A stretch of DNA of 64,000 nt from Pedobacter sp. (GTDB taxonomy: Bacteria > Desulfobacterota > Desulfuromonadia > Desulfuromonadales > Syntrophotaleaceae). The position numbers and the translations under genes were made by a program. Location: contig JBFWJC010000004.1 in the NCBI GenBank assembly GCA_050253415.1, positions 32,001 through 96,000 of the forward strand, written 5' to 3'. Numbering within the stretch: position 1 is the stretch's first letter; every line of letters starts with the position of its first letter. Below, piece after piece: positions 3,358 through 24,714 of this stretch. The notes under the pieces were generated by a model that saw only the letters and a list, made by a program, of their open reading frames with translations, was not told where the DNA came from and searched no databases.

Positions 3358-4629
3358 TCAACAGGCTCCATATCTTGTTAAAACTGTTCTTATTGTTTTA
3401 CTAACAATCCAAAAATCAAGCCATAATGAAAAGTATTTAGTGTAGTATAGGTCGTGCTCAAGCTTATCCCTGTTTTGATCAACACCAGAGGCATAACCAT
3501 ACATAACCTGAGCCCAACCAGTTAAGCCAGGTTTCACTAAATGCCTATAGGCATAAAAGGGGATTTGACTTTCAAACTGTTTTGCAAAGTGAACCTGCTC
3601 GGGACGAGGCCCCACAAGAGACATATCCCCTTTTAGAACATTCCATAACTGAGGAATTTCATCGAAACGAAAGGGCCGAATAATCTTTCCGATACGCGTT
3701 ATGCGGGAATCATCAGACTGTGCAAAGCGCGCTCCCCTTCCTTCTGCATCTGTACACATACTCCGGAATTTACACATCCGAAAAGAAACGCCTTGTTTCC
3801 CCACCCTTTCCTGCCAGAAAAAAATCGGTCCATGAGAATCCAATCGAATCAACAATGCGAGAAGGCCTGCGAAAGGAAGAATAACCGGACAGAAAAACAC
3901 TACAATTCCCACATCGATAATGCGCTTGAATGTAGAATAAAAGGGGTGCATAGAATATTCATCGATTAAAGCTTCTGACAAATGTGACAAAGAAACCCGA
4001 CCAGTCGCTGCTTCTAAAACAACTGCTGAGTGATAAACAGGAATCCTCCTCAATCCACAATTTGACAAAAAACGAATCCATTCCATAGACAGACTTCCAT
4101 GCATATCCACAACAACACCATCAACAGCTCCAGTGATCTCAGGGCGTTCAAGCATCTGCCAATTTATATTCTTTAGATGCAACAACTCACCGGTTTTCCC
4201 TCCAGGCACCAGCACAAGACGGAGGGGCTGGGACTTAATAAATAATTCAAAACATATAAGTAACCATAAAAGGGTTACTCCAAAAGCCGTCAATAAAAAA
4301 CTTCTGGAATAATAAAAGCGGCATAAAGCAAGCAGGACGACGACGCCAACAAAAGCCAAACTGACGCTTAAAAAAATCAATCCAATAATTTTAGTTCTTG
4401 GGAATCGCAGAAACTGCCGCATTATCATAATAGAAGCAAGGTAAGCCAGCGAACAGAAAAACAATAAAGGCCAAGCATTGACCTGCTTCCAGAATTCGAA
4501 TCCACTCCACGCTACTAAGGACGCAGTAACAAGAAGAACAACAAGTCCGGTGACAAGAAAAAGTCTACCTTTAAAATCCTGAATGGAGCGCAGATCTTTT
4601 TTGGTAAGTGATAACTGTGCTGGTTGCAT
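3358..4629 (-). CDS. Initiating polyprenyl-phosphate glycosylphosphotransferase (WbaP/WcaJ-type)
   Basis: Four N-terminal TM helices; C-terminal KRIID, KFRSM, RFDEIPQLWNVLKGDMSLVGPRPE and KPGLTGWAQV motifs. Confidence 0.9.
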   Translation of the reverse strand: MQPAQLSLTKKDLRSIQDFKGRLFLVTGLVVLLVTASLVAWSGFEFWKQVNAWPLLFFCSLAYLASIMIMRQFLRFPRTKIIGLIFLSVSLAFVGVVVLLALCRFYYSRSFLLTAFGVTLLWLLICFELFIKSQPLRLVLVPGGKTGELLHLKNINWQMLERPEITGAVDGVVVDMHGSLSMEWIRFLSNCGLRRIPVYHSAVVLEAATGRVSLSHLSEALIDEYSMHPFYSTFKRIIDVGIVVFFCPVILPFAGLLALLIRLDSHGPIFFWQERVGKQGVSFRMCKFRSMCTDAEGRGARFAQSDDSRITRIGKIIRPFRFDEIPQLWNVLKGDMSLVGPRPEQVHFAKQFESQIPFYAYRHLVKPGLTGWAQVMYGYASGVDQNRDKLEHDLYYTKYFSLWLDFWIVSKTIRTVLTRYGAC

Positions 4630-4662
4630 ACCCCCCCTAATAGACCTTTTAAAAACATGACA

Positions 4663-5490
4663 CTATGGATTCAACTTGTTCCGAAGAGAACTTGAGTATA
4701 AACATTTGACTACCCAAGAAGGTGAAAGTCTCAACAAAAGACGTGCAAGTGGAAATATGTATTTATAGCTAAGGCCATGTAGTTCATAAATTCCCCTAAA
4801 ATATATCTTCAATTCACTTAAAGCTCGATTTTTTCTACGTCTTTGATAAAAGTCATTATCAACCCTCATGTACACAAGAGGCTCAGTAATATTTGAAAAA
4901 ATGACGCCGTTTTTAATTCCTTGAAACCAAAGAGCCAAGTCCTGATTGTAGGTAGCCCATTCAGGATACATTTTTATTTTTTTAAAAAAACTTTTGCGAA
5001 AACAAATAGTAGAGTGTGCGAGAGGATTTCCCTTGTGAATAGTCTTTTTTATCAAGTCCATATTTAGAGGATAATTTCTCTGATAAACCTTCCTCCCGAT
5101 ACAATCAATTTCAATTATTCCTCCACCCAACACTTCAACCTCAGGATGTTGATGAAGAAAAATAACCTGTTTTTCAAATCTGTCTGGGACGCAGTAATCA
5201 TCAGCATCCAAACGGAAAATATATTCTTCATTTTCTAAATTTTTTATTAATTTATTCAAGGTTTTGGTCAAACCAAGGTTTTGGCTATTCCGGCAAATTT
5301 TATAAAAAACACCTTCATGATGGGCTATGTAATCTTCCAATTCGTCCCCAATAGGACCATCCACCCCCAGATAAATGCGGATGTTTTTAAAGCCAACAGT
5401 TTGTGCAACAATCGAATCAATCGATTGTTGGAACCACTTGCTCTTATCTCCCCTATATAGACATATCAGTACTGCGAATATCAATTCCAT
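4663..5490 (-). CDS. Family 2 glycosyltransferase (AmsE/WbbD-like)
   Basis: GVDGP, NLGL, FRLDADD (DxD), RFEKQ and QDLALW motifs. Confidence 0.88.
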   Translation of the reverse strand: MELIFAVLICLYRGDKSKWFQQSIDSIVAQTVGFKNIRIYLGVDGPIGDELEDYIAHHEGVFYKICRNSQNLGLTKTLNKLIKNLENEEYIFRLDADDYCVPDRFEKQVIFLHQHPEVEVLGGGIIEIDCIGRKVYQRNYPLNMDLIKKTIHKGNPLAHSTICFRKSFFKKIKMYPEWATYNQDLALWFQGIKNGVIFSNITEPLVYMRVDNDFYQRRRKNRALSELKIYFRGIYELHGLSYKYIFPLARLLLRLSPSWVVKCLYSSSLRNKLNP

Positions 5491-5509
5491 GATAAATAAG
5501 TTATAAACC

Positions 5510-6913
5510 TCACCGATTAGTAGGATTGAAGCGCGTTCGAATTATCCGTAGACTATTCGCTAATGCTTTTAGTACAAACCTCCTGGGTCCCATGCGTTTT
5601 ATGTGACCGATCAAGATGCGAGGTTGTAGATTAAATCTGAGTTCAAGACTTTGTTTCAGATGAAGTTTTTCAGGATAACTCAAACATTCACTATGAGGCA
5701 GGATCAATGAACGCCACCGACGAAAAACTAATTGCGGATTTTCATCTAGATAATCATATAGTTCTGAACCAGGTAACCCAATAAAGGCCGCAAAATAAAC
5801 CCAATCCGGCTTAAGGGAAAAAACCAGATCTAAAGTCTTATTAAGCTCATCGCGCGTTTCTCCGGGTATTCCCAACATAACAGAGAAGCCCACTTTAACC
5901 CCAACCTGTTTACAAATACGCGTTGCTTCCTTTACCTGATCAACTGTAATGCCCTTTTTCAATCGTTTTAATACTTCGTCGGACCCCGACTCGATTCCAA
6001 ACCACATAGAGCGTAATCCAGCTTGATACATGGTTTGCACAAACTCAACAGAAAGGTTATTTACCCTTGATTCACAACCCCATTCAAAATCCAACTCATT
6101 TTCTCGAACCAGGTTACAGAAGCCTCGAACGCGTTCTTCATCCAAGGTAAAATGGTCTTCCCTAAAGTATATGGCGGTCGCATCCGTGCCCTTCAGGGCA
6201 TTCTTAACGTGCTCCAGCATGCATTGTGGACTCATAGCCCGATACTGGCGGGACCATACGTACTTATTGGAACAAAAGGTACAATGAAACGGGCACCCAC
6301 GTGAGGTGTTCAACACTTCCACTTTGCCAGCGGAGAATTCAGCATAACTGCGGTCGTATCGGCTAAGGTCGACAATGTCATAAGGAACCAATGGAATGGA
6401 ATCCATTTCAATCCATGGTCTTACCTCATTTGTGATATAAGCACTTTGCTTTTCATCCCAAAACGTAAGCCCCCGTACCCGGTGGTACTGTTGCCTCCCA
6501 AACAACTCTTGTAAAAATTCAACGGCAGTCTCTTCCCCTTCTCCCTGAACAGCAAATGAACAAGGCAAGTCATCCAATATACCTTTAAGATTTGCCGTAA
6601 CCTCCGGGCCACCGACAAAAACTGGCACGTGGCTATACATTAACGCATGGCAAATATCAGCGGCAGCCTGAACAGTAGCCAAATTTACTGTAATACCAAC
6701 AGCATCGGCCTGTTCCAAATGAATCTGAGAGGCAACCCAGTCGGCCCCCTGACCTTCCAGGTTATCATCTATAATTGTTACGGAATACCCCGCCTGTCGA
6801 AGACAGCCAGCAATCACCAGAAGACCCAGAGGAATAGTTGGTTTCATACGCCCTAAGGGAAAGTCAGCGGGAACATCCGGGCGAATCAGAACAATTTTTT
6901 TATTAACTCTCAC
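5510..6913 (-). CDS. Cobalamin-binding radical SAM enzyme (class B methyltransferase-like)
   Basis: N-terminal B12-binding domain (IPLGLLVIAGCL, VFVGGPEVT, QGEGEET), TSRGCPFHCTFC (CxxxCxxC), FGIESGS and MLGIPGET. Probable GTG start at 6913; the upstream extension in the ORF track overlaps the neighbouring gene. Confidence 0.88.
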   Translation of the reverse strand: MRVNKKIVLIRPDVPADFPLGRMKPTIPLGLLVIAGCLRQAGYSVTIIDDNLEGQGADWVASQIHLEQADAVGITVNLATVQAAADICHALMYSHVPVFVGGPEVTANLKGILDDLPCSFAVQGEGEETAVEFLQELFGRQQYHRVRGLTFWDEKQSAYITNEVRPWIEMDSIPLVPYDIVDLSRYDRSYAEFSAGKVEVLNTSRGCPFHCTFCSNKYVWSRQYRAMSPQCMLEHVKNALKGTDATAIYFREDHFTLDEERVRGFCNLVRENELDFEWGCESRVNNLSVEFVQTMYQAGLRSMWFGIESGSDEVLKRLKKGITVDQVKEATRICKQVGVKVGFSVMLGIPGETRDELNKTLDLVFSLKPDWVYFAAFIGLPGSELYDYLDENPQLVFRRWRSLILPHSECLSYPEKLHLKQSLELRFNLQPRILIGHIKRMGPRRFVLKALANSLRIIRTRFNPTNR

Positions 6914-8039
6914 GGTTCCCATCCAACAGACTGGAATACAGAGTCTGATAGGCCAGAGACATTTTCCTGGCGCAGAAATATTGATCGACAAGAGCAACTG
7001 CAGCTTCGGACCGGTGTTTACGTTCAAACTTCACCAGCCGTTCCAAGCAGCCTACGAGTCCTACTTCATCGCCGACAGGAAACAATTCCCCGACCAAAGG
7101 TGAAGGCTGAACTTGTTCCCGATGGGACGGAATATCAGAGAGTGCGACCGGCAGACCACATGCCATGGCTTCCATAACGGCATTCGGCAAGCCTTCGGAA
7201 TGGGCCGCAGACACAAAATAATCAGCACCCTGTAAATACGGCCTGACATCCCCGACATGTCCCAGCAGGTGCACCCGTTCTTGTGCCAGAGCTTCCTTCT
7301 GACAGGCAGCGAATAGGGGACCATCGCCAAGAACAAACAAATGGTCTGTTGTAACGCTAGAGAACTTCCGAAACGCGCGGATAAGGGTTAAAGGGTCTTT
7401 ACGTGGCATCAAGGAACCTGAGGTTACGAAAACCCTCTTGCCTTGGCCAATTCCCCATTCGCTCCTTATCTGATGGCGCCGCGCTTGGGATGAGAGACAG
7501 AAAAACTCCGTATCTATACCATTCTGGATGACATGAACATTAAAATTTGAAGGGCCGAACAAACCAGCGATAGAATGAGAACATGGAACGACGGCATTAA
7601 ATTTGGGAAGAACAGTGCTATGTTTCAAAGCCATCCAACAGCCCAATAGCCTGCCAAATTTCATAGGATAGTCATGAAAAGGAAAATTGCGTAGAGTCGC
7701 CACGGTTGGTATGTCGCCTACCATTCCCCCGGTCAAAATATCAGGCCGAAACCCACTAGAGTGCAACAAATCGGGCTCTATACGGCTCAACACTTGGCGC
7801 AAACGCTGCGCCCCCAAGAGAATACATGCACCACGAGAGAGTCCAAGGGACTCAATCTCGACCCCCAAACCCGCTATCTCCGATTGCGCAGTATCAAGAG
7901 CTTCAGGCGATAGTGTCAAGACGAAAGGCTCATATTTTTGACGATCCAGGCCCTTAATGATATACCGCAGCTGATTAATTGGCCCACACGACTTGAGTGT
8001 TGAACAGAGATAGAGTATCCTTTTCGCTCTTTTAGACAC
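6903..8039 (-). CDS. Family 4 glycosyltransferase
   Basis: IQNGIDT, RKDP, GDGP and SEGLPNAVMEAMACGLPVALSDIP (EX7E). Probable GTG start at 8039 after GAGG. Confidence 0.9.
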   Translation of the reverse strand: MSKRAKRILYLCSTLKSCGPINQLRYIIKGLDRQKYEPFVLTLSPEALDTAQSEIAGLGVEIESLGLSRGACILLGAQRLRQVLSRIEPDLLHSSGFRPDILTGGMVGDIPTVATLRNFPFHDYPMKFGRLLGCWMALKHSTVLPKFNAVVPCSHSIAGLFGPSNFNVHVIQNGIDTEFFCLSSQARRHQIRSEWGIGQGKRVFVTSGSLMPRKDPLTLIRAFRKFSSVTTDHLFVLGDGPLFAACQKEALAQERVHLLGHVGDVRPYLQGADYFVSAAHSEGLPNAVMEAMACGLPVALSDIPSHREQVQPSPLVGELFPVGDEVGLVGCLERLVKFERKHRSEAAVALVDQYFCARKMSLAYQTLYSSLLDGNRES

Positions 8040-9141
8040 TAAGCACCTCAAGATACTGCTCCACTGCTTTTTCGCAAGAAAACTCCAGACCCCGATCAAT
8101 TAGAACCTGCCTTGGCAGGGGGGTGTCCAATGCCTTTGCAATTGCCTGCGCCATCAACTCCGGGTCACCAACGGGAACAAGATGTCCAAACCTGCCACCA
8201 TCCAAAATCTCTGAAGGGCCACCAGGACAAAGGGTGGCCACCACTTGTGTGCCTGCTGCCAAGGCCTCAACTATTACATTTCCAAAACCTTCCCAAGCTG
8301 AGGAAGACACAAACACCGATGCATTGGCCATATAAGGCAAGGGATTGATTAAAAAGCCAGGCATCTGAACGTCTTCCTCCAAGCCTAAAGAATGAATCAA
8401 TTTTTCGAGATCATGGCGCTTATCCCCTTCTCCAAGGATCATTAATCGTGCATTACATCGACTTTTCAGTATCCTGAATGCTCGAATCAAAGTTGGGAAA
8501 TCTTTCTGTTCGGCTAACCTTCCAACACTTAAAATAATAGGGATGTTCTTATCATGAAACCATTCATGTGATACCGTCTCTAGATATTGATCAGTCATTT
8601 TTTGAGTTACAACTGGATTATAAATGACATGAAGACGTTGCGTTGGGATAGTGCCAAGAGACAAAAGATCTTTGGCTACCCCATTTGATATCGCTATCAC
8701 ACTGTCTGCAAACGGATAAAGCCTGCCGATAAGGTATGGCGTCAAATACCGCTTCAGGCAAGGATAATGCCTCACACTTTTCCACAAGGCGTTAGCTTCC
8801 CGAACAACGAGACGCATTTCCACCCCGGACAACTTTCTTGCCGTAAGTGCAATCAGATTAGTCTGGTTCAGAGTCGAAAATAAAATCTCTGGCTGCTCCT
8901 TTTTAAGATACCGAACAAGCCCTGGGAGGCTTTTCAAAACACGGCTTACCCCAAGATCGACCACTCTCACACCATCAGGCACTTGGCTTAGATAGGGACC
9001 AACAGCCTTGGTAAGCACCAAATCGATCTGCAGTCCCCTATCAATAAAACCTTGCGCCAAATGGAGCATCATTTTCTCTGCCCCACCACCTCTAAGGGCT
9101 GGCAGAAACATAGCAAGTTTATGAGTTTGTTTAACAGCCAC
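8032..9141 (-). CDS. Family 4 glycosyltransferase (PglJ/WabH-like)
   Basis: GGGAEK, IYNPV, VGRLAEQKDF and EGFGNVIVEALAAG motifs. Confidence 0.92.
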   Translation of the reverse strand: MAVKQTHKLAMFLPALRGGGAEKMMLHLAQGFIDRGLQIDLVLTKAVGPYLSQVPDGVRVVDLGVSRVLKSLPGLVRYLKKEQPEILFSTLNQTNLIALTARKLSGVEMRLVVREANALWKSVRHYPCLKRYLTPYLIGRLYPFADSVIAISNGVAKDLLSLGTIPTQRLHVIYNPVVTQKMTDQYLETVSHEWFHDKNIPIILSVGRLAEQKDFPTLIRAFRILKSRCNARLMILGEGDKRHDLEKLIHSLGLEEDVQMPGFLINPLPYMANASVFVSSSAWEGFGNVIVEALAAGTQVVATLCPGGPSEILDGGRFGHLVPVGDPELMAQAIAKALDTPLPRQVLIDRGLEFSCEKAVEQYLEVLSV

Positions 9142-9197
9142 TAAATATCCTCAGAATCCTAGGTACAAGTACATAGCTCAATCTTAAGTAAGAGGGT

Positions 9198-10169
9198 TTA
9201 GTTTAAAAACAGATCCTTCATGGCACTTTTCCAGCCGCTAAAGAACCGATACCCACCACGACTGAACAAGGAAAGAACAGGCCAGAAGCGCATCAATCTT
9301 CGAATTGCCAATATTTCAGCACGAGAAGCTGCACTCTCCCTTCGCTGCCCTTCTTCTTTAATCACTCTATCAATGTGCTCAGGCGAAGTAAAATTACGCT
9401 CAATGAGGGCAGTACGATTTGCCTGCAACCATCCGTAGAATTGAGAAATTTGCCCAATATGAAGAGCTGTTTTATGTTTAACTCGTTCGGAGTGGAAATA
9501 CCTAGATGTGGTTATAAAATCAACATTCAAGCTTCCTGTTGTCGTTACATTAGAAGAATGACGACGATACTTTGATAGCACTTCACAAATGATGCGCTTT
9601 TTACCAATAGCCCCAGCACAGCAGTGAAGCCAGAAATCATGCGCTACATTACATTCACTTGGTATTGGAAGACATAATTGCAGAAAAGGGCGCCGAATAG
9701 CTGTCGCCATACCAACTACGTAGCAACGCTCTAAGTCAAAAACCTTGTGCATCCGTTCAATTTTCGTTTGACCAATCGGCGTCAAGTCGCCTCTACAATA
9801 TTCAAGATCATGAATTAAAAGTTGAATTTCTGGATCATCAGCAAAAAAGGATACAACCCTCTTAATTTTGTTTGATAACCAAACATCGTCCTGGTCACTT
9901 AGAAAAATAATATCACCGGTACAATACTGAAGTGCCTTCGAAAAATTCTGCGCATAACCAATTTTAATTTTATTTACAAAAATTTTAATTTCAAATTGAG
10001 CAATATCTGCGAACTTTCTTACAATATCAACGGTTGAATCTGTAGAGCAATCATCGCAAATAATCAGTTCGTCTGGCTGTTGTGTTTGCTCTATAAAGCT
10101 GCACAATTGTTCGCGAATATACTTTTCACCATTGAATGTTGCAAGCGCTATTGATATACGTTTTTGCAT
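9198..10169 (-). CDS. Family 2 glycosyltransferase (rhamnosyltransferase-like)
   Basis: IALATFNGEKYI, DDCSTD, LSDQDDVW, HDFW and YRRHSSN motifs. Confidence 0.9.
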   Translation of the reverse strand: MQKRISIALATFNGEKYIREQLCSFIEQTQQPDELIICDDCSTDSTVDIVRKFADIAQFEIKIFVNKIKIGYAQNFSKALQYCTGDIIFLSDQDDVWLSNKIKRVVSFFADDPEIQLLIHDLEYCRGDLTPIGQTKIERMHKVFDLERCYVVGMATAIRRPFLQLCLPIPSECNVAHDFWLHCCAGAIGKKRIICEVLSKYRRHSSNVTTTGSLNVDFITTSRYFHSERVKHKTALHIGQISQFYGWLQANRTALIERNFTSPEHIDRVIKEEGQRRESAASRAEILAIRRLMRFWPVLSLFSRGGYRFFSGWKSAMKDLFLN

Positions 10170-10227
10170 TCATTTTACCGAATTCTAATCAACATAAATG
10201 CTATTATCATTTTGATGAAATTCTGAT

Positions 10228-11376
10228 TTAATCGAAAATACACTTATGAAGTTCATTGAGATACGCGGTTCCCCAGCGCTCACATGGCTCGAGATGATTT
10301 CCCTCTGCCCATTCATTCCAAGCATTGACAAATAAAAAACGTTCTGGAACCAAAGACCAGTCGGTGACCTTAATTTTCCCTTCAACCCATCTTCTAAAAT
10401 GTTCTGGTGTTGACTGGTCTAGTATCAAAGCAGTGTCTTTCAATCTTCTGGCAGAGTTATCCCAACCAGGGCATACACCAGGAAAAATTGGTTGCCCATC
10501 TTGAAAGTCAAAAGCCAGGTCATTATTAACAACATCAGTATATCTGTGAATTTTATCAGGCGGCTTTAGCCCCAAATGAAATCGTTTCCTAATCCACCGA
10601 TAATAATTACTCGGGTAAAAGTATTTGGGATATTTACGGCCTTCAGCCTTGTCCAACCTACGGAATTGCCTTGTCAATGGCTGGAACTCAATACCTGCAT
10701 CAAAAACCGAAAAGGCTCTTTCAAAATCAGCAGAGGTACCTAGACCACGTTCAAATCGGCACAGATAAACGTTGATACCATTATTTATCAATTCGCGCCT
10801 AAATGCTTTTATGCAAAGATCAACGTTTTCAATTTCCTGATCTTTGTAGATTGCGAAAACAGGCCGGCCATCAACCTTGATATATCGGGGGTCTTTAAAA
10901 TATTTCACCAAGTGGCGTGCATGGGCAACAAAATCATCGACTGAATAACTCTGTCCTAGAAGAACTTTATTGTAGCCGCCGTCCCAGTTTCGAGACCAAT
11001 TTTCATTCGCCCAACATAGCATAAAAGGGAAATCTGGCTTCCCGGAAGCTAAAATTTCATCGACAGGCCTTTCAAGCAACCTACGACCATTAAACCAGTA
11101 GTGATAGTAGCAAAACCCGTAGATTCCAAATTTTTTAGCCAAATCGGCTTGTGCCTCGCGAGTTTCAGGAAGACGCAGATCATAAAAGCCGAGGTCCCGT
11201 GGCAGATGCGGCTGGTAATGCCCACGAAAACGAGGCTTGGCTTTAACAACATTCGACCACTCAGTAAACCCCTCACCCCACCACTGGCTATTTTCAGGAA
11301 CGGGATGGAACTGTGGAAGAACCAGAGCAATCGGTTTAATTTTCTCTTCACGATAAGGCATAACTAATATCGACAA
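10228..11376 (-). CDS. WbsX-family / GH99-like protein
   Basis: LPQFHPVPENSQWWGEGFTEW, LGFYDLR, GFCYYHYWF, LCWANENW, GWDNSAR and NAWNEWAEGNHLEP are characteristic of PF14307. Confidence 0.9.
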   Translation of the reverse strand: MSILVMPYREEKIKPIALVLPQFHPVPENSQWWGEGFTEWSNVVKAKPRFRGHYQPHLPRDLGFYDLRLPETREAQADLAKKFGIYGFCYYHYWFNGRRLLERPVDEILASGKPDFPFMLCWANENWSRNWDGGYNKVLLGQSYSVDDFVAHARHLVKYFKDPRYIKVDGRPVFAIYKDQEIENVDLCIKAFRRELINNGINVYLCRFERGLGTSADFERAFSVFDAGIEFQPLTRQFRRLDKAEGRKYPKYFYPSNYYRWIRKRFHLGLKPPDKIHRYTDVVNNDLAFDFQDGQPIFPGVCPGWDNSARRLKDTALILDQSTPEHFRRWVEGKIKVTDWSLVPERFLFVNAWNEWAEGNHLEPCERWGTAYLNELHKCIFD

Positions 11377-12533
11377 CCTTTTAAAATGCCGTTAATGATG
11401 TTACTTATCCTTTCAGTTCCGGCTGTGATATCATGACGATCACGGACCTTATCGGCGGCGCGCTCCCCTAGACATCTCAACAAAGAAGGATCAGCACAAA
11501 GACTGACAATCTTTTCGGCCATGGCCTCCAAATTAAGGTAGGGAACAATAAATCCAGCGTCATTTTCTACGAATTCTGGCATCCCACCCGCATCAGCAAA
11601 ACAGAGAATAGGTTTTCCAAAGGCCGCGGCTTCTAAACAAACAAGAGGAAAGGGATCCTCCCGCGACACCATTGCAAAAACGTCTCCAGCAATGAAATAA
11701 TCAAGGGGATTGTTTACTTGGCCAATAAATTGAATAAGGCCTTTCAGTCCCATCTGCTGTATTTGAGTATGAATGTTGCCTTTTTCCCTCTGGTTTTCCC
11801 AGCCGCCGACCCAAAGAAAGTGTACCGGCCTGTCAACAACGGATTTACTAACTAGGGCAGCCAACCGAACAAAGAGGTCCTTCCCCTTCCGCCAAGTTTC
11901 TTGTCCTGAGCCAAGAACTACAAAAGCACTTTCCGGAATACCAAGTTTCTGTCTGATCCCTGTCGGGTCCGCGGTAATCCCACATGCATGAATAAAGCTG
12001 TGCATAACGTCGATTTTTCCGGAAGCGATTGAGTACTTGCCAACAAGATTTTTTTTAACGGCTTCCGAGGCAGCAATATAATGGGTAGAGTACCTTCGCA
12101 CCTGATCAAGGTTAGTACTACCTGACCTTTCAATCCAATAGTCGAGTTCGTGAACATGGGTTAGTACTGGACAACCGAGAGGTGTCAACGTTTTAAGGAT
12201 GTCACCATTAGTGATGGTATTGGAATAAATCAGCTTTACCCCGGAGTCTCGAAATCGTTTTACCAATTGCCTGTGATGCCATGCGGCAAGAAAGTGACTC
12301 AGCCCTGGGATTCGGGAAACGCAGGCCCTGCCTCTACCTGATGTAATACGATTCTCATAAAAATATGTTGGGGCAATAGCGGAAAATTCTTCCTGAAGGG
12401 GTCCTGGGCCGCGCAGCAAGATCTCAAAAGAGAGATTAGAGTTCTTCTTGAACCACCTCAGCAGGTTAAGCAGCATTAAGGGAGCGCCAGTGCGGCAAGC
12501 GCTATGGCTTATGAACAATATGTTGTTTTGCAT
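11364..12533 (-). CDS. Family 4 glycosyltransferase
   Basis: FISHSACRTGAP, THVHE, RKGKDLF and SREDPFPLVCLEAAAFGKP motifs. Confidence 0.88.
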   Translation of the reverse strand: MQNNILFISHSACRTGAPLMLLNLLRWFKKNSNLSFEILLRGPGPLQEEFSAIAPTYFYENRITSGRGRACVSRIPGLSHFLAAWHHRQLVKRFRDSGVKLIYSNTITNGDILKTLTPLGCPVLTHVHELDYWIERSGSTNLDQVRRYSTHYIAASEAVKKNLVGKYSIASGKIDVMHSFIHACGITADPTGIRQKLGIPESAFVVLGSGQETWRKGKDLFVRLAALVSKSVVDRPVHFLWVGGWENQREKGNIHTQIQQMGLKGLIQFIGQVNNPLDYFIAGDVFAMVSREDPFPLVCLEAAAFGKPILCFADAGGMPEFVENDAGFIVPYLNLEAMAEKIVSLCADPSLLRCLGERAADKVRDRHDITAGTERISNIINGILKGCRY

Positions 12534-12550
12534 AAATTTTTAATAAATCC

Positions 12551-13945
12551 TTAAATAATTTTTGTCTGTTTATGCAGAATTTTCTTCAATATTTTCTTTG
12601 GGATCTTTCTAGCGAAAGTGAGCCAGTCTTTTAGTGAAAGATCCGCTTTATGCAATTGCGCAGGCCTCAAAGCCAAGAACCGTGAAATTATGGAAAGTTC
12701 GTCTAAATACATAAATTTATTTTTTTCCGAGATAGATGGTTGCGGAAAAGGGATATCACCAATGCCCTTAACCCCAATACGGTTTAATTCATATGATGGA
12801 GAAAATAGATAACCAAATAAAAGTTTGGAAAAAAATAGATCATCTTTTTGAGGAATATTTTTTTTAGCAAGAAATATCAAACTTCCAAGACTCTTACTAA
12901 GATCACTTGTATTTTCAACCTTTATAACGAATCGATTTTTTTCAAGAATCGACTGTCCAAGGATCAAAACGGGCTTACCCAAAAGAGCCGCTTCTACTGC
13001 TGAAGAAGAATTAATTGACACAACAGCATCCGAATGCTCTATACAATCAAATATATGGGCTTCTTCAACCCACCTACCAGAGGCCATGGGTAACCCCTTA
13101 AAGGAGCCTGCATCTTCTTGCATCGGATGTTTTTTTGCTAATAGAAAAATATCCTTTGAATATGGAATTAAAGATTCTACGAGATGGTAATAAGCATCGA
13201 AGACTGATGGGTAAAGAGGAGAAAAAATTTTTGAATTGGAATCCTTATCAACCTGAGAAGGGAAAAAAAGAATTACCTTGTCTTTCGGTATTCCAAACTT
13301 GTTTAGAAAACCGGCCCGACTTGCAATCCTCCCAGGCTGCCCCCAATTGCTTTCCCCAGTGGAGATGTAATGTTCTGAAAACCGTTGAATTCTCTGTAAC
13401 TCGATATCGGACTTAATTTTCTCAAAATGGGCAACAAAGGATGAACGGTAATTTATACCCATTTCATCAAAAGAGAACGTTCCTGCCAAAGGACCACGTT
13501 CTACAAAATATCGTTTAATACCTGAAGATTCGGCTACTTGTGCAAGAGCTACTTCAGGTAGATGAAAGCCATTCCAGATATAAACAGCTGATGGCGTGTA
13601 GAGTTTAAGTATTGAAATCCAATAAAGCAACCAAGAATACGCTACCTTCCTAGATCGAACAGGGTCATACATTTGCCATATTTTGTCGTATTCAGAAATC
13701 TTATCAACGATATCTGGATACTGAAAGTCACAATCATCAAACAAATCAATAAAAAGGTTTTTTCCATAACTCAATTTGACAATATTTAATATTTTTAAGC
13801 TAGGACTCTCCACTGGAGTAAAGAAAATAAAATTGAAGTCTTGTTTATAACGGTCATATAGTGAATTCCATAAATCCACCTCGCTCTTGGAGAGAGAGGC
13901 ACAATTAAGTATTATAATATTACATTTCTTAAATTCACTATTCAT
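12551..13945 (-). CDS. KpsS/LipB-like capsule-synthesis family protein (putative beta-Kdo transferase fold)
   Basis: IWNG, FVERGP, FDEMGIN, FPSQVDKDSN, KKHP and INSSSAVEAALLGKPV match PF05159-type motifs. Confidence 0.7.
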   Translation of the reverse strand: MNSEFKKCNIIILNCASLSKSEVDLWNSLYDRYKQDFNFIFFTPVESPSLKILNIVKLSYGKNLFIDLFDDCDFQYPDIVDKISEYDKIWQMYDPVRSRKVAYSWLLYWISILKLYTPSAVYIWNGFHLPEVALAQVAESSGIKRYFVERGPLAGTFSFDEMGINYRSSFVAHFEKIKSDIELQRIQRFSEHYISTGESNWGQPGRIASRAGFLNKFGIPKDKVILFFPSQVDKDSNSKIFSPLYPSVFDAYYHLVESLIPYSKDIFLLAKKHPMQEDAGSFKGLPMASGRWVEEAHIFDCIEHSDAVVSINSSSAVEAALLGKPVLILGQSILEKNRFVIKVENTSDLSKSLGSLIFLAKKNIPQKDDLFFSKLLFGYLFSPSYELNRIGVKGIGDIPFPQPSISEKNKFMYLDELSIISRFLALRPAQLHKADLSLKDWLTFARKIPKKILKKILHKQTKII

Positions 13946-13977
13946 TTTAAATTAGAGCAATCTGTTTAAGGTGTTTA

Positions 13978-16683
13978 TTAAACCATATTATGAACATTTA
14001 AAAACTTAAAAATAGCTTCACCTGATCTTTTTTTTAATTTCTTAACATTTTCCTCAATGCAACAAGAAAAACTATCTCTTTGAAAAAAGACATCTCCTAT
14101 CTTTTCAATAACATTCTTCTCGAGTTGTTCAGGTCTTACTTTAACAAGTAGATCTTCCTGATCGAAAATTTTCATTGCACCGTAGTTTTTATGATGGTAA
14201 TAATCATCGAAGACCATTGATACGGTTGGCACGGCAGCGGCCATAGCAAAGATAATTGGGTGATGTTTCATCGTTAAACAGAGATGTGCACCTTGTATGA
14301 GACCAACAGCCAAGTCTGGGTGGTACTTATGCTTCGGAAAAATACTGGGAACTGTCATGGCATGACGAACTGCCTCGGTGGAAGATTCATCCGATATGAC
14401 CATGGGAACAAATACAATTTGAACACCAAAATTTTTATAGACCCAATCAAGAGCCCTTGCCAGGTTTTCCGTGATCATTCTGGACGTTTCTGAATCCTGG
14501 CCCCAATAGTGTACATTTACGGCCAGATAAGGTTGACCAATATTCAAACCACTATCTGCTAACAAGGATAAAACTTCGTTTTTTTCAGCCGCCTTAAAAA
14601 ATAGCGCATCATCAAATGTGATTTCTACTTTTTCATTCAGCATACCGATATCAGCGAGATCCTTGGGTGAGTCAACACCATCACGAAGGTAAATCAAAGC
14701 AGCTTTTTTCAAACCCCACTTAGCCAAAAACCGGCTTACTTTATCCTGAAAAACCCCGATAGTCTGTCCAGAGAGAATTACCGGCACGTCCAACGCAGAA
14801 GCAAGACGGATCAACAACATGTTGTCCCATAACCGCGTAAGAGTCATACCCGTTAGATAGCCACCACCAGAAAGGAACAACACGTCTGAATCGTTGAGTT
14901 CGTTAAGCAGCCTCGCCTGTGCTGAGGTCAGACCAACTATCGGCAATCCTGCCCGCACCAGACAGGCATTAAAAAGACTGATAGCGGCCACCAGCGGATA
15001 AAGAACCTTGAATATTTTCTGAGAACCAAAATATTCCTGTCCCCCCAGAGTAAAAAGAGACTTCCTCGGCGCAAGTTCAACCTTAACCGAGCCATGCATA
15101 TTGCTGGTGTATTCCCGGTTCGGAGTTAGAACGGTTAACCTGCAGCCAGGTGACAACCGTCGCCAGTGTTGCAGATTAGCCGCGAGTTGCGCTTCGTCGC
15201 CGACATTGCCGTATCCGTAACCACCCGCTATCAAAACTCTGAGGCGGCTAATATCAACGGAGCGCTTTGCCTGCCGAACTCCGAAAAAGAAAAGAACCGA
15301 CATCACAGCAGGACGAGCTACCTTTAACCATAATCGTTCCATAACCCTATTAATTCGCCGGAAGAATTTTTTCACAACCGTTCTATTCCAAGTTAATGGA
15401 CTTACCAACAAAAGCAAACCTGTTACCGGTACATTGCCTAGTCGGAAATAGAAGAAATTCGACAATTTCATCAACAACCAGAGCCGCCAGTATTCATGAG
15501 TCTCCCTTGAGAACCATTGACGGTTCCAACCCAGCGAGTCATAGTTCTTGTCCAGTTCCTGCTTGATACTTTTTTTCCAGACGAGTCGATAACGGACCTT
15601 CTCGTGCTTGAAAATGGGCGTCGCAATTTGCGAATTAAAGACTTCATCGATATCGCACTCTTCAAGAAATAATCGGTTAACATTTTTCAACTGGGTCAAG
15701 TGCTTTAAAATCTCGCGATTATTGACGACCAACAGCGAGGACCCGAGAGGGTCGGCACTCAAACGGCCCCAGGCATCTTTGATTGAGATATCCGCATCAA
15801 CCCCGTAGAAATCGGCGCAATACAGGCAGCACTCTTGGGCAAAGAAATAATTGCGCCACATCTTCGTAAAGGCGGTGGCAAATCGGTTTCTTCTTATTTC
15901 CCGGTCGGGTAGGATAAAAAGATTATTAAAATTGTTGGCATCCGGTATTCCCATCTTGTCACGGGTTCGGATAGTATAACGTACATCCTTCTCAATACCC
16001 TCTTTGACGGCAAGGCAGTCAGAGAAGGCCCCTGTCACACTCTTTCCACAAACAAGACCGAATTTGTACTTAATTTTCCCCCTTATCCCTGAAGGAAGCC
16101 GGGCTAACCCACGTAGCACGCAAGGAACGCCCACAACTGCAAACGAGCCCGGACATTCAGCAATCTCGCGAAGAACTTTATCATAACTCGGTGTATGATA
16201 ATGGGAACCTCTACCCTGATAGAGTTCCTCAACCGAGCGGAAAATCTTCATTTCAAAATGCGGAGTCCCCACAGAACCTGACAGCGGCAAGACAGCCATG
16301 ACACCATCAACGGCCCCGGAGGTGAGTAGGTGCTCAAGCAGTGCACTGGTCACCCCCCCAGAAGCGGAACGAATTCTCCTAGACGCATCCTTATCGTAAG
16401 CAATAAAGTATTTCGACTCCGCCGCAAGCCCGAACCTTGCGCCCTGAGCCTGCGCGGCAGCCGCGTATTCCATAATGCACTGGGGAGAGTTTGGACAAAC
16501 TTTGCGGCAACTGCCACAATTGATACAGCCTGCTTCATCAACTACTGGTTGCCACGTCAGATTTTCTTGCCAAACCATGCCAATCATTGTTTTCGGACAG
16601 ACGGCGCAACAGAGACCACAACCGACACATAGGTTGCTGAGAACAATATCACTGATATTCAAAATGGCCCTATCAGACGGCAT
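13978..16683 (-). CDS. Fusion of 2x[4Fe-4S] ferredoxin, FrhB-like (F420 hydrogenase beta) domain and polysaccharide pyruvyltransferase
   Basis: CVGCGLCCAVCP and CINCGSCRKVCP; RIRSASGG, VVGVPC, GLVC, CLYCAD and DISIKDAW (FrhB-like); C-terminal GGYGYGNVGDEA, SGGGYL, GQTIG, YLRD, DDA and MKHHPIIFA (PS_pyruv_trans-like). One uninterrupted ORF of about 900 aa. Confidence 0.85.
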   Translation of the reverse strand: MPSDRAILNISDIVLSNLCVGCGLCCAVCPKTMIGMVWQENLTWQPVVDEAGCINCGSCRKVCPNSPQCIMEYAAAAQAQGARFGLAAESKYFIAYDKDASRRIRSASGGVTSALLEHLLTSGAVDGVMAVLPLSGSVGTPHFEMKIFRSVEELYQGRGSHYHTPSYDKVLREIAECPGSFAVVGVPCVLRGLARLPSGIRGKIKYKFGLVCGKSVTGAFSDCLAVKEGIEKDVRYTIRTRDKMGIPDANNFNNLFILPDREIRRNRFATAFTKMWRNYFFAQECCLYCADFYGVDADISIKDAWGRLSADPLGSSLLVVNNREILKHLTQLKNVNRLFLEECDIDEVFNSQIATPIFKHEKVRYRLVWKKSIKQELDKNYDSLGWNRQWFSRETHEYWRLWLLMKLSNFFYFRLGNVPVTGLLLLVSPLTWNRTVVKKFFRRINRVMERLWLKVARPAVMSVLFFFGVRQAKRSVDISRLRVLIAGGYGYGNVGDEAQLAANLQHWRRLSPGCRLTVLTPNREYTSNMHGSVKVELAPRKSLFTLGGQEYFGSQKIFKVLYPLVAAISLFNACLVRAGLPIVGLTSAQARLLNELNDSDVLFLSGGGYLTGMTLTRLWDNMLLIRLASALDVPVILSGQTIGVFQDKVSRFLAKWGLKKAALIYLRDGVDSPKDLADIGMLNEKVEITFDDALFFKAAEKNEVLSLLADSGLNIGQPYLAVNVHYWGQDSETSRMITENLARALDWVYKNFGVQIVFVPMVISDESSTEAVRHAMTVPSIFPKHKYHPDLAVGLIQGAHLCLTMKHHPIIFAMAAAVPTVSMVFDDYYHHKNYGAMKIFDQEDLLVKVRPEQLEKNVIEKIGDVFFQRDSFSCCIEENVKKLKKRSGEAIFKFLNVHNMV

Positions 16684-17617
16684 GCTCAATTCCAGGTCTT
16701 ACGGATTTCCTGATTACAACCGACAGATGCGTCCCCCCGGCAATTTTTGCGGTTACCATATCCCCGAAAAATGACCATATTTTCTGAGCAAGCGTTTTGG
16801 TTGAAAAATATGGAGAGTAAACCGAATCCGTCAGAGGGAAAATGGCAATCTCCGAATGTATATGATTCTCCTCCAGAAACATCCGCATCCCCTTTCGGGA
16901 AATAGCCCAAAGATGTCTTGGTGGGTCTAGACCATGTAACATTTTTCCGGTTAAAAGTTTCAACTTAACCCTTGAACTTGAGAGTCCACTTGCTATGCTG
17001 ATTTTCTTCACCCGATCTTTCAAATTCAAGTAAGGATAAGCAAAATACTCCAAAGAATCTCCGTTTGGGCAAATGACCAGAAGCGTTCCGCCCTCTTCCA
17101 GAAATTCGGTTAGCTTAAGGATAAAAGCTGCAGGATCAACCAAGTGTTCAATAAGATGCCGGCACATGATAAAGTCGTACTTGTGTTCACCGGCATTCAG
17201 CATTGCAGCGTCTTGGTTCAATACATTTTTCAGCCCAACCTTCTCCTTGGCAAAACTGCACGCCTCACTGTCGAGGTCAACATAGGTGCTCATGCCGTAA
17301 CCTGATACTTCAAACGCTTTTGCATAAAAACCACCACCGCCACCAACATCAAGCATTTTAAGGCGACCGGTCTTCGGCAAATTGAGCCCTAAAAAGAGCT
17401 CTGTCCCTGTTTTTAATATGCAATGCAGATTCCGAAGGTCTGCACAAAAAAGGAATCCCTTGTAGAACTCCAGTAATTCTTTGTCATTAGGCATTGGGTA
17501 AACCTGCCCTGTACCACAACCGCCACACTGTAAAACATCATATTCACTCATTTGATAAACGGGTGAGGTAGAACCCTGACAAAATGGGCATACAGGATAC
17601 TGGTGTAGGGTATTCAT
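16673..17617 (-). CDS. Class I SAM-dependent methyltransferase with N-terminal Cys4 zinc ribbon
   Basis: CPFC...CGGC, MLDVGGGGG, HLIEHLVDP and PPRHLW motifs. Confidence 0.85.
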   Translation of the reverse strand: MNTLHQYPVCPFCQGSTSPVYQMSEYDVLQCGGCGTGQVYPMPNDKELLEFYKGFLFCADLRNLHCILKTGTELFLGLNLPKTGRLKMLDVGGGGGFYAKAFEVSGYGMSTYVDLDSEACSFAKEKVGLKNVLNQDAAMLNAGEHKYDFIMCRHLIEHLVDPAAFILKLTEFLEEGGTLLVICPNGDSLEYFAYPYLNLKDRVKKISIASGLSSSRVKLKLLTGKMLHGLDPPRHLWAISRKGMRMFLEENHIHSEIAIFPLTDSVYSPYFSTKTLAQKIWSFFGDMVTAKIAGGTHLSVVIRKSVRPGIEHAV

Positions 17618-17629
17618 CGTTCATTATTC

Positions 17630-18826
17630 CTATCTAATCAACATCCAGTTAGCCATCAACTGAACAGATGCACCACCACAAAAGCTCCCTATGACTTCAA
17701 AACTTTTCCCTGCATATAACCAAAAAAGTTGTCTATTGTTGGTCTTGTCATAAACAATCAGGTTAAGATAGTAAACGCCAGGGTTTAGATCCAAGCGATC
17801 AACTTCAATACGGACTCTGAATTTACTGTTTTCATTTTCTATTTTTACGCCATTGTAGGAAGAATGGCACTGAGCCACCAGCGTTCCGTCTTGCCCCATA
17901 AAGGTAATCGACAAGGAAACTTCCTCGTATTTATCCCCAATATTTAGGTCGAATTCAAAAACGAAAGGATCACGCCAGTTGAAAATGTCGCATGTTCGAT
18001 TATTTTTATCGAGTAAAGTCAAATTCTCAACAAGAGTGTCTTCATCGCCCCTGATGGCTTTTTGATTTTGACCAAAGCATGCGTTATATTGAGCAATTGC
18101 CTGGGCAGTATCACCTTGAAATACTTTCTTCCCTTTTTCCATCAATAAGGCTGAACTACTTAATCTATTAACAAAATACATATGGTGAGATACAAAAATA
18201 ACAGCACATTTTTCAACTAAATCAGCCACTCTCGAATAACACTTTGATCGGAAGCCAAGATCTCCAACAGCCAAAACTTCGTCAATAAGCAGCACATCCG
18301 GCTCCATTTGAGCCGCCACTGCGAAACCAAGACGCACTCTCATGCCCGAACTGTAGTTTTGCACAGGTGTATCAATGAACTCTTCTATCTCAGCGAAATC
18401 AATGATTTCATCAAGTTTCCGGTCAATTTCCTTTTTACTAAAACCCAAAACAGAACCATTAACATAGATATTTTCGCGACCGGACAAAATCGGGTTAAAT
18501 CCAGCCCCAAGTTCAATAAGCGCACCGACGCGGCCATGCATGGTAATCCGACCCTGATCCGGCTTAATAAGTCCATTTAGCATCTTCAAGAGAGTACTTT
18601 TTCCGGCGCCATTAGGTCCGATCAATCCAAGGCATTCGCCACGCTTAAGTTCAAAGCTAACGTTATTTACCGCCCAGAATTCATCCTTACGCAGTTCACC
18701 GTTTCCACCGTGGTGTTGACCAGACAATTCCTTGCAAAGGTCTTGCATACCATACAACAGGGAACGTTTTAGACTTCGACAAAACTTCTTTGAAACGCCT
18801 TCGACTCTGATTATCTTCTCGCTCAT
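17630..18826 (-). CDS. wzt: Polysaccharide ABC exporter ATPase with C-terminal carbohydrate-binding domain
   Basis: GPNGAGKST, YSSGMRVRLGFA, DEVLAVGD and VSH, followed by a ~150 aa beta-rich Wzt_C domain (LNPGVYYL). Alternative GTG start at 18838. Confidence 0.92.
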   Translation of the reverse strand: MSEKIIRVEGVSKKFCRSLKRSLLYGMQDLCKELSGQHHGGNGELRKDEFWAVNNVSFELKRGECLGLIGPNGAGKSTLLKMLNGLIKPDQGRITMHGRVGALIELGAGFNPILSGRENIYVNGSVLGFSKKEIDRKLDEIIDFAEIEEFIDTPVQNYSSGMRVRLGFAVAAQMEPDVLLIDEVLAVGDLGFRSKCYSRVADLVEKCAVIFVSHHMYFVNRLSSSALLMEKGKKVFQGDTAQAIAQYNACFGQNQKAIRGDEDTLVENLTLLDKNNRTCDIFNWRDPFVFEFDLNIGDKYEEVSLSITFMGQDGTLVAQCHSSYNGVKIENENSKFRVRIEVDRLDLNPGVYYLNLIVYDKTNNRQLFWLYAGKSFEVIGSFCGGASVQLMANWMLIR

Positions 18827-18830
18827 GGCC

Positions 18831-19682
18831 TTAGGCACTCATGCGTTCAATAAGAATAGGCATCGCCAATCGATAGACTACCCAAACCACGAGCAACAAC
18901 ACGATGGCAGCAAAATTAACCAGAAAGTAATAACCTAAGTATTCAGGCGTAAAGCCTGTCAACCAATTGCGGGCATTTATTATGACAGGCGTAAGCGGGT
19001 TATTAGCGAAGAGCGTGGCTGCCCATCCCTCTTTTGGCATGGGGAAAACTACAGGCGTAACGAACATCAAAAAATGCATCAGCAAGGGCAGACCACGACC
19101 GATATCTGAATAGAGAATGCCGACTGGAGTAATGAGCAAACCCAAAGCAGTGCCAACCAGGATCAGTGATAGAATCCCAAATGGAAAGTACAGCAGCCCC
19201 CATCCTGGATTAATTCCCATAAAAAACAACACACCTAGAAGAAGGGTGATCTTGATGAACGCGTTGAACAGTGTCTGGTAGATGCCTGAGACGATCAAGG
19301 CTTCGCGAGGAAAATTGAGCTTGGTCAACATTGCCTTGGCAGCAATGGCTTGCTGCAGAGGGGCATTGAGGGCATCCATAAATAAGGCCCAGAGCATAGT
19401 ACCAGTGAGGACATATACCGGATAAGGCAGCGCGGTATCGGAAATCTTAACCACTCCGGTACTATTCAGGAAGATCCAGGCGATGGTGTTGGCAAGGGGC
19501 AGAATGAAGGCCCAGAGGATGCCAAGGAAGGCTTGACGGTACTGGGCGCTGATGTCTCGCACCGCCAAACGCCAAGCCAACTCCCGGCCGGCGGCTAAGT
19601 CACGAAACATCTCTCTTGCCATCCTGCAAGGGTTGGCAAGAGACGAATCAGGTGTATAGATGATTATTCGTGGTTCTTTCAA
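18831..19682 (-). CDS. wzm: Polysaccharide ABC exporter permease
   Basis: RDISAQYRQAFLGILWAFILP, KLNFPRE, FVTPVVFP and NPLTPVI; adjacent to wzt. Confidence 0.9.
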   Translation of the reverse strand: MKEPRIIIYTPDSSLANPCRMAREMFRDLAAGRELAWRLAVRDISAQYRQAFLGILWAFILPLANTIAWIFLNSTGVVKISDTALPYPVYVLTGTMLWALFMDALNAPLQQAIAAKAMLTKLNFPREALIVSGIYQTLFNAFIKITLLLGVLFFMGINPGWGLLYFPFGILSLILVGTALGLLITPVGILYSDIGRGLPLLMHFLMFVTPVVFPMPKEGWAATLFANNPLTPVIINARNWLTGFTPEYLGYYFLVNFAAIVLLLVVWVVYRLAMPILIERMSA

Positions 19683-24670: not shown

Positions 24671-24714
24671 AAATGCCTCCAATTTTAAGCCTTAGTTTCT
24701 AAATGCAGCTGGGA

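Follow-up and report, generated by a model that had tools for sequence, protein, structure and literature searches.

A ferredoxin- and FrhB-like reductase fused to a polysaccharide pyruvyltransferase: a candidate lactyl-ether tailoring enzyme in an exporter-linked glycan operon

RESULTS

Two enzyme modules in a single open reading frame

We analyzed a stretch of 64,000 nucleotides (here called the window) from an assembly deposited as Pedobacter sp. and placed by GTDB in the Desulfobacterota (Desulfuromonadales, Syntrophotaleaceae), namely, positions 32,001 to 96,000 of contig JBFWJC010000004.1, and in it a gene in which ferredoxin-type and FrhB-like reductase domains are fused to a polysaccharide pyruvyltransferase. 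The gene is an uninterrupted open reading frame (ORF) at 13978..16689 of the minus strand, on which the window genes given below with coordinates also lie. It encodes 903 amino acids (aa) if translation starts at the TTG at 16689, or 901 aa from the ATG at 16683; the coding part from the ATG is 13981-16683, and the stop codon occupies 13978-13980. The original prediction, made from the sequence alone, had proposed a one-protein lactyl-ether synthase, and the architecture on which it was built, a single frame of about 900 aa with two [4Fe-4S] motifs, an FrhB-like domain, and a pyruvyltransferase domain, is borne out by the ORF and by the Pfam matches.

Residues 16-66 (16486..16638) form a double [4Fe-4S] ferredoxin-like domain, matched by Fer4-type dicluster families of Pfam, with two CxxCxxCxxxCP motifs made up of Cys19/22/25/29 and Cys53/56/59/63. 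An FrhB-like flavin/[4Fe-4S] domain follows (residues 93-342, 15658..16407), recognized from Pfam, conserved cysteines, and Foldseek; FrhB_FdhB_N (PF04422) matched residues 93-165 (E value of 2.4e-11, 44.1 bits against a cutoff of 22) and FrhB_FdhB_C (PF04432) residues 181-342 (1.9e-13, 51 bits against a cutoff of 23.3). The C-terminal half is a pyruvyltransferase-family GT-B domain (residues 481-901, 13981..15243), delimited by Pfam, Foldseek, and alignment, in which PS_pyruv_trans (PF04230) matched residues 493-823 (2.8e-26, 93.5 bits against a cutoff of 25.3). This domain had been placed from about 15243, which is where residue 481 begins; the FrhB-like domain, in turn, ends at residue 342 (15658-15660) and not at about 15560 as proposed.

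The 138 residues between the two halves (residues 343-480, 15244..15657) constitute a helical linker, defined by composition, hydropathy, and the structural model. It is rich in Trp and Arg, as had been noted (5.1% and 10.9%, respectively; the protein as a whole has 1.8% and 6.2%), while the hydrophobicity ascribed to it stays below the usual transmembrane level, the maximal 19-residue Kyte-Doolittle mean being 1.58. The AlphaFold2 (AF2) model has helices here at residues 393-415, 420-431, and 434-466, with a predicted local distance difference test (pLDDT) score of 67-84. Judging from its sequence, the linker is probably a membrane-interface anchor of the fusion.

Structure prediction, which had been suggested as a check, gave an FrhB-like N-terminal half and a GT-B C-terminal half. 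With the AF2 model (mean pLDDT of 93), Foldseek matched the former to the N-terminal half of Fsr, FrhB, and plant HCAR (E values of 1e-10 to 1e-14), and also to FdhB-type subunits and to partners of CO dehydrogenase and formylmethanofuran dehydrogenase, and the latter to GT-B enzymes. A sequence search of the PDB with the fusion found no pyruvyltransferase at E values up to 1, and the MurA and MurB families were absent from the 18 Pfam families matched by the fusion and from the Foldseek matches listed.

The fusion recurs in many phyla

A survey of domain architectures, also suggested with the original prediction, found PF04432 and PF04230 on one chain in 95 of 118 near-length database matches (the query counted), that is, the fusion is recurrent. 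When 1.84 billion cluster representatives were searched, 365 matches reached an E value of 1e-30 or better, and by a hand count 52 of the best 150 of these were at least 800 aa long. A scan with one genome per GTDB species yielded 69 related loci in many phyla, among them Desulfuromonadales, Planctomycetota, Omnitrophota, Verrucomicrobiota, Bacteroidales, Bacillota, and the archaeon Methanocalculus. Both halves lay in one ORF in at least 33 of the 66 loci having a C-domain match on the expected strand, and in others they were adjoining separate genes, as in locus L012.

Such split, adjoining versions found in nature are what could be held to favor an assembly or gene-calling artefact made of two neighboring genes. 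Against this stand the one open frame with its conserved linker, the 95 fused matches, which come from many assemblies, and run X3 of another study, in which a contig of 735 bases, about 91% identical, crosses the linker unbroken at 14987-15721. In addition, contigs of one run, possibly the source, covered the whole gene at a depth of 44 with zero differences; coverage in runs X2 and X4 was partial, and no RNA run was listed for the window. The probability of an artefact is practically negligible, and the fusion is a genuine gene. The family is already catalogued in databases, its members bearing the JGI product name 'coenzyme F420-reducing hydrogenase beta subunit/polysaccharide pyruvyl transferase'.

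Cofactor ligands and residues of the phosphoenolpyruvate site

Conservation was determined in an alignment of 67 fused relatives and in a second one, extended by E. coli WcaK, WfeP, a CsaB-named protein, and a distant fusion (P0106). Among the 67 relatives the eight ferredoxin-type cysteines are invariant or at least 90% conserved, Cys188, Cys212, Cys286, and Cys289 are each conserved in 90% or more, and the SASGG motif (residues 106-110) is conserved as well, SASGGV aligning with GQDGGV of Fsr. As in solved structures of the family, these four cysteines and SASGG would serve the FrhB-type [4Fe-4S] cluster and the flavin. All twelve cysteines are predicted to be ligands of three [4Fe-4S] clusters.

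Genes of this family are routinely misnamed 'coenzyme F420 hydrogenase'. In the present genome, which is estimated to be 100% complete, the fusion is the only PF04432 match, and a CofD match was not found, which makes F420 an unlikely cofactor of the fusion. Two adjacent CofH/CofG-like genes of the radical S-adenosylmethionine (SAM) type (contig C2 of this genome, G000, 300236-302313) scored 343 and 336 bits with the CofH model against a cutoff of 374, and presumably they are MqnC/MqnE, paralogues from the futalosine (menaquinone) pathway. The NCBIfam models of FpoF and FrhB gave the fusion 36-52 bits against cutoffs of 269-475, and all F420-enzyme models stayed far under their cutoffs.

In the pyruvyltransferase half, Arg667 and His808 are invariant across the extended alignment, WcaK and WfeP included, and Lys832 is invariant among the 67 relatives. 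By motif context, rather than by alignment with the CsaB sequence of P. alvei itself, they were mapped to R148, H308, and K328 of CsaB. Published work on CsaB (PMC10435577) ties those three residues to phosphoenolpyruvate (PEP) binding by mutagenesis and gives R306 as a docking-predicted PEP contact. The position of R306, the Arg of an RxH motif, is taken in the fusion by Lys806, a conservative change kept in at least 90% of the 67 relatives.

Lys806 belongs to an MKHH motif (residues 805-808, 14260..14271, located by alignments), to which attention had been drawn on the ground that the family usually has xRxH there. The Arg-to-Lys difference is real. The same columns of the extended alignment read TRLH in WcaK, MRLH in the CsaB-named protein, ARYH in P0106, and DSFH in WfeP. 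We considered MKHH as a signature of a lactyl product and rejected it, since one fused relative (P0106) keeps the Arg and WfeP has a Ser. The motif is thus a clade-wide mark that is uninformative on the product.

A gene pair tied to a lactyl ether in E. coli O124

No E. coli genome was matched when the nucleotide sequence of the fusion gene was the query. We reached the E. coli O124/O164 antigen cluster via the glf gene of K-12, having examined seven glf-bearing loci, in six of which an FrhB-like gene was not found. In strain WEC the cluster consists of galF, wzx, genes for an FrhB_N/FrhB_C protein of 460 aa (WfeO) and a PF04230 protein of 378 aa (WfeP), a family 2 glycosyltransferase (GT2) gene, a GT32 gene, wzy, a second GT2 gene, glf, a third GT2 gene, and gnd. 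The wfeO and wfeP genes overlap by 4 bases and are the sole tailoring genes of the cluster, the others being glycosyltransferase, flippase, polymerase, and mutase genes. According to a review (PMC7685785), the O124 side chain carries glucolactilic acid and that of O164 a glucose in its place, the two clusters are >99.4% identical, and the difference between the antigens is put down to a frameshift in wfeP, a pyruvyltransferase gene between wfeO and wfeQ. Of the six E. coli genomes in which we found the cluster, three had the transferase gene intact, and three had it in two pieces and one base shorter.

WfeO is 23% identical to the N-terminal half of the fusion over 342 aa (E value of 4e-24) and keeps the four FrhB-type cysteines. 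At its N terminus it has one ferredoxin-type Cys motif (L077, 2392-3774), as opposed to two in the fusion, so that its electron intake, in a facultative aerobe, may be different. The chromosome of E. coli K-12 encodes the ketal-forming WcaK and has no PF04432 match. Klebsiella capsules offer a parallel: PMC4616057 lists K8, K22, K37, and K66 as having pyruvyltransferase genes and capsules that are not pyruvylated, and K22 contains 4-O-(1-carboxyethyl)-glucuronic acid, as worded in a title cited in PMC3857182. Three small E. coli plasmids (24-34 kb) carry a pyruvyltransferase gene about 70-75% identical to wfeP in short stretches, and one of them also an FrhB-like gene; a lactyl-type gene pair may be plasmid-borne in some E. 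coli strains.

These comparisons favor PF04230 enzymes as enolpyruvyl donors for lactyl ethers and an FrhB-like protein as the reductase, and for the fusion itself they tip the balance slightly toward lactyl-ether chemistry. The Rosetta-stone argument of the original prediction, that the fusion implies reduction of a PEP-derived group on the glycan by the FrhB-like domain, is sound in its logic and is favored by the wfeO/wfeP pair with its lactyl ether. The product assigned to the fusion, on the other hand, comes by analogy, and here several observations weigh against the lactyl assignment. The transferase half of the fusion showed no BLASTP similarity to WfeP (best E value of 0.26) and belongs to a different PF04230 clade, so that function is transferred here by module logic and not by orthology. 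The co-occurrence with lactyl-ether glycans, a check suggested with the original prediction, was found in the O124 cluster, which is one gene cluster, and the E. coli link comes from this cluster and the statement of a review rather than from biochemistry. In the searchable literature we found no enzyme assay for the fusion or its fused relatives and no glycan structure, and nothing on lactyl-ether biosynthesis by FrhB-like and pyruvyltransferase-type enzymes; Liu 2008, Knirel 2017, and Mann et al. 2019 may hold prior gene assignments, and the DebRoy 2016 supplement makes no mention of F420, pyruvyl, nitroreductase, or wfeP. Finally, the relative orientation of the domains and active sites is unreliable in the AF2 model, the predicted template modeling score being 0.58.

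The substrates of the FrhB family are very diverse, its members among the structural matches including sulfite reductase, the partners of CO dehydrogenase and formylmethanofuran dehydrogenase, and HCAR, and sequence does not identify the substrate, so the FrhB-like domain might reduce something else, such as a keto-sugar intermediate, or reductively open a ketal already formed. In that case the product would be no simple ketal, nor would it arise by a MurB-like step. We regard this as quite improbable. The O124 cluster has no other candidate for lactyl formation and its antigen implies no keto-sugar chemistry, and the recurring partner is always a PEP-dependent transferase.

Partner domains in relatives and the ketal alternative

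The fusion could also be an ordinary ketal pyruvyltransferase whose FrhB-like half acts elsewhere, for example, by passing electrons to a B12/radical SAM enzyme or in redox sensing. The best NCBIfam match of its C-terminal half is to CsaB, a ketal former (TIGR03609, E value of 7.4e-32, 110.9 bits against a cutoff of 213.1), which likewise counts against a lactyl product, and the PEP-binding residues are those of ketal formers. Three relatives (P0054, P0056, and P0066) carry a B12/radical SAM domain fused to a transferase of the same clade (62% identical over 510 aa), and an FrhB-like protein of 449 aa (68-70% identical) stands alone, apparently on the same contigs; in L012 the FrhB-like gene overlaps the B12/radical SAM gene. 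The radical SAM partner of this type, an orthogroup with 65-73% identity among its members (e.g., L012, 6361-7911), was nevertheless present in 6 of the 69 loci only and has no orthologue in the present genome, where the best match is 29% identical, and the pairing of FrhB-like protein and transferase is far more general than that with radical SAM. In E. coli O124, where the pair is present and a radical SAM gene is absent, the sugar bears a lactyl ether and not a ketal, and K-12 forms its ketal without an FrhB-like protein. We therefore consider a ketal product unlikely.

In the relatives that have it, the radical SAM partner hints at a further modification of the PEP-derived group. The glycan cluster of the window also contains a gene for a B12-binding radical SAM protein (5510..7027, identified by Pfam), whose membership in the module is doubtful. 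We tried it as a third Rosetta-stone partner and rejected it, as it is 23-29% identical to the module-type orthogroup and the genome holds no closer copy (best match of 29%). Elsewhere an MptE-like (PF01973) domain is the fusion partner of this transferase clade, beside Wzm/Wzt, as in L039 (5041-7185, Saccharibacteria) and in P0098-P0102.

The fusion gene belongs to a conserved exporter-linked operon

The strongest contextual signal, which the original prediction did not include, is that the fusion belongs to a conserved exporter-linked module. It is the fourth of a series of minus-strand genes, closely spaced or overlapping, that encode Wzm, Wzt, a methyltransferase, the fusion, and a PF05159 protein, followed by glycosyltransferases and an initiating transferase. 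The first of these, a Wzm-like ABC-2 permease (18831..19682), had no Pfam match at 1e-5; its name comes from where it lies and from homologues. Next to it lies the gene for a Wzt ATPase with a C-terminal Wzt_C carbohydrate-binding domain (17630..18838; PF00005 and PF14524, the latter at 4.3e-12), and then that for a SAM-dependent methyltransferase (16673..17617, identified by Pfam), the stop of which overlaps the start of the fusion by 11-17 bases; against the PDB this protein matched only generic class I methyltransferases, and WbdD was not matched. Downstream of the fusion, at a distance of 32 bases, is a gene for a KpsC/WbbB-like (beta-Kdo-transferase-like) glycosyltransferase (12551..13945; PF05159 at 4.4e-8). 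Its model (pLDDT of 84.9) had KpsC and WbbB beta-Kdo transferases as the top Foldseek matches (E values of 3e-10 to 2e-8), before generic GT-B epimerases, and the protein keeps an invariant HP pair and an SSS stretch, which we take to be features of CMP-sugar-dependent enzymes of the KpsC/WbbB kind. The rest of the glycan cluster (3358..12533, identified by Pfam) comprises an initiating Bac_transf protein, two GT2 and three GT4 glycosyltransferases, a WbsX-like protein, and the radical SAM gene mentioned above.

Searched by tblastn with the window proteins, the 69 related loci gave homologues of Wzt in 23 cases, of the methyltransferase in 21, of Wzm in 18, and of the PF05159 protein in 9. The gene order of the window was mostly kept, with the methyltransferase mostly directly upstream of the fusion: the order Wzm, Wzt, methyltransferase, fusion was repeated in L002-L006, L008, and L013, and a genome of the same order (G036) has Wzt, methyltransferase, and fusion as in the window. 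In L012, the closest relative, the genes are separate and run Wzm, transferase, Wzt, methyltransferase, FrhB-like protein, B12/radical SAM protein. The particular feature here is the combination of a reductase-pyruvyltransferase fusion with a module of Wzm, a Wzt bearing a carbohydrate-binding module (CBM), a KpsC/WbbB-like transferase, and a methyltransferase.

In PMC10629545, methyl, methylphosphate, or Kdo caps are described as coupling chain termination to export via the CBM of Wzt, the pyruvyltransferase WbbZ is reported to place a terminal pyruvate on Klebsiella O1 and to shorten chains in vitro in a PEP-dependent manner, and pyruvate-based termination in CBM systems is presented as proposed, not validated. 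With Wzm, a CBM-bearing Wzt, a methyltransferase, and a KpsC/WbbB-like gene in one operon, the likeliest place for the fusion to act would be the non-reducing terminal residue of the chain. A role of the fusion in a terminal cap is, in our view, tentative, and weaker than the claim on its chemistry.

The evidence on a cap is divided. When the loci with 5 kb or more of sequence upstream were split by C-domain identity at 42%, the methyltransferase and Wzt were each present in 11 of the 16 loci at or above that value, which favors a cap, and only in 5 and 4, respectively, of the 32 below it, which speaks against one. Among 13 loci with a Wzt_C-like domain (27-78% identical), 11 had the methyltransferase, while none of five loci with a full-length Wzt match and no Wzt_C-like match had it; kinship among the loci makes these counts non-independent, and they are small. 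The methyltransferase thus tracks the type of Wzt_C, so that the methyl group, and not a lactyl or pyruvyl group, may be the ligand of the exporter. Starting from Wzt_C gave a small and mixed result: 4 of 400 other Desulfobacterota genomes had a related domain, with the fusion nearby in two of the four, including the sole one above 30% identity. The model of the fusion, the one operon protein examined for this feature, has only the short helices at residues 393-466 and no long coiled-coil ruler of the WbdD type.

A lactyl ether might instead be placed on internal residues of the repeat unit, with the linkage to the exporter being a matter of operon packaging only. The lactyl sugar of O124 is indeed a side-chain residue of the repeat unit made by a Wzx/Wzy pathway, distant fused relatives are mostly without Wzm/Wzt, and two of the four genomes with a related Wzt_C lack the fusion nearby. 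Packaging would not readily account for an order of Wzm, Wzt, methyltransferase, and fusion that is kept over several phyla while the neighboring glycosyltransferases vary, nor for the transferase gene lying between wzm and wzt in L012 and a KpsC/WbbB-like transferase following the fusion in 9 of the 69 loci. We find an internal site somewhat unlikely.

Genomic setting

Searches with the whole protein found no match in 6 genomes of the same genus or in 10 of the same family, and one full-length match (54%) among 24 genomes of the same order. The G+C content of the cluster is 0.38-0.46, below that of the pilus and housekeeping genes past 34 kb, and its minimum of 0.38 falls on the KpsC/WbbB-like gene (window positions 12001-14000), compared with 0.44-0.58 elsewhere. 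The low G+C content and the absence of the fusion from the 16 same-genus and same-family genomes fit a laterally acquired surface-glycan island, perhaps a recent one.

The whole glycan cluster lies between a pilin pair and PilD/PilM/PilN. The pair, downstream of PilR/PilS and PilB/T/C, consists of a Geobacter-type pilin (FTLIELLIVVAIIGILAAIAIPQF..., an ORF of 77 aa, 24715-24948) followed by a secreted protein of 134 aa (24278-24682). We presume this position of the cluster to be that of the Xap polysaccharide genes in Geobacter sulfurreducens. Immediately downstream of this pair is the gene for a membrane protein of 617 aa (22343-24196) that belongs to the Wzy_C (O-antigen ligase-like) type and ends in a soluble tail. 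Instead of being a polymerase, it could serve in the O-glycosylation of pilin or of proteins.

DISCUSSION

We propose, at about even odds, that the fusion is a membrane-associated enzyme that tailors a lipid-linked surface glycan in two steps, forming a lactyl ether, perhaps at the chain terminus. In the first step, the C-terminal PF04230 domain would transfer the enolpyruvyl group of PEP to a sugar hydroxyl, as its family membership and PEP-site residues suggest. In the second, the FrhB-like domain would reduce the double bond of the enol ether before a second hydroxyl closes the ketal, a step to which the fusion, the adjacency of the two genes elsewhere, and the case of O124 point. Going by the family, a low-potential donor would supply electrons, which would reach FAD by way of the two ferredoxin-type clusters and then the FrhB-type cluster. 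The product would be a 1-carboxyethyl (lactyl) ether, made by the logic of MurA and MurB with unrelated folds. The genomic context suggests that the reaction would take place at the membrane, on the non-reducing terminal residue of a lipid-linked chain, together with the methyltransferase and the KpsC/WbbB-like transferase, and the modified terminus would stop chain growth and license export.

An elaborated form of this scheme, which we deem unlikely in its full detail, would have the KpsC/WbbB-like enzyme add a terminal residue of the ulosonic-acid type, the fusion make the lactyl ether, and the methyltransferase methylate, the composite acidic cap then stopping polymerization and being read by Wzt; in some relatives, the radical SAM enzyme fused to this transferase clade would elaborate the carboxyalkyl group. 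Such a cap would represent a way of terminating chains that is new to the literature.

The nearest comparison is with WfeO and WfeP of E. coli O124/O164 (Shigella dysenteriae type 3), where, as in the fusion, FrhB_N/FrhB_C and PF04230 domains are encoded together, in that case with a genetic tie to a lactyl-ether sugar. They differ from the fusion in being two proteins, in belonging to a Wzx/Wzy cluster, in the clade of WfeP with its DSFH, and in the single ferredoxin-type motif of WfeO; a biochemical characterization of the pair was not found in the searchable literature. With MurA and MurB the fusion would share the reaction logic, MurB carrying out a flavin-dependent reduction to the lactyl ether. 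There is no homology, the folds here being GT-B and FrhB-like, and, unlike in the Mur pathway, the acceptor is probably a lipid-linked glycan and not a nucleotide sugar, and the electrons would come from iron-sulfur clusters and not from NADPH. The role of MurA in UDP-N-acetylmuramate synthesis is enolpyruvyl transfer, as stated in PMC6801904.

CsaB, WcaK, WbbZ, and Pvg1p are, like the C-terminal half of the fusion, PF04230 proteins that keep the PEP-binding Arg, His, and Lys, and WbbZ modifies the chain end of an O antigen that depends on an ABC transporter, the kind of site that we propose for the fusion. These four are standalone enzymes that form cyclic ketals, whereas the fusion is joined to a reductase, has a hydrophobic helix at the N-terminal side, and carries Lys in place of the Arg of RxH. 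On the reductase side, FrhB, FdhB, FpoF, the N-terminal half of Fsr, HCAR, and BciB share the fold and cofactor motifs with the fusion, while F420 biosynthesis was not seen in the genome under study; HCAR and BciB are ferredoxin dependent, and BciB reduces a C=C bond. The systems in which Wzm and a CBM-bearing Wzt work with a terminator, WbdD for methyl or phosphomethyl and WbbB for beta-Kdo caps, resemble the present locus, where the tailoring genes adjoin wzm and a wzt with a CBM and where a methyltransferase gene and a KpsC/WbbB-like gene are found. The locus differs from them in having no kinase and no long coiled-coil ruler seen in the fusion, and a lactyl or pyruvyl cap chemistry is not validated anywhere.

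Lactyl-ether sugars beyond muramic acid are found in many bacterial antigens, and PMC7685785 gives E. coli O58, O69, O124, O146, and O150 as carrying them. A single polypeptide with both of the proposed steps is a convenient object on which to test the chemistry of their formation. Should the product also prove to be a cap that the exporter recognizes, the model of length control and export of ABC-transporter-dependent glycans would gain a new kind of terminator. For the organism itself, we would speculate that an extra carboxylate on a matrix polysaccharide could affect surface charge, given the setting of the cluster in a pilus locus.

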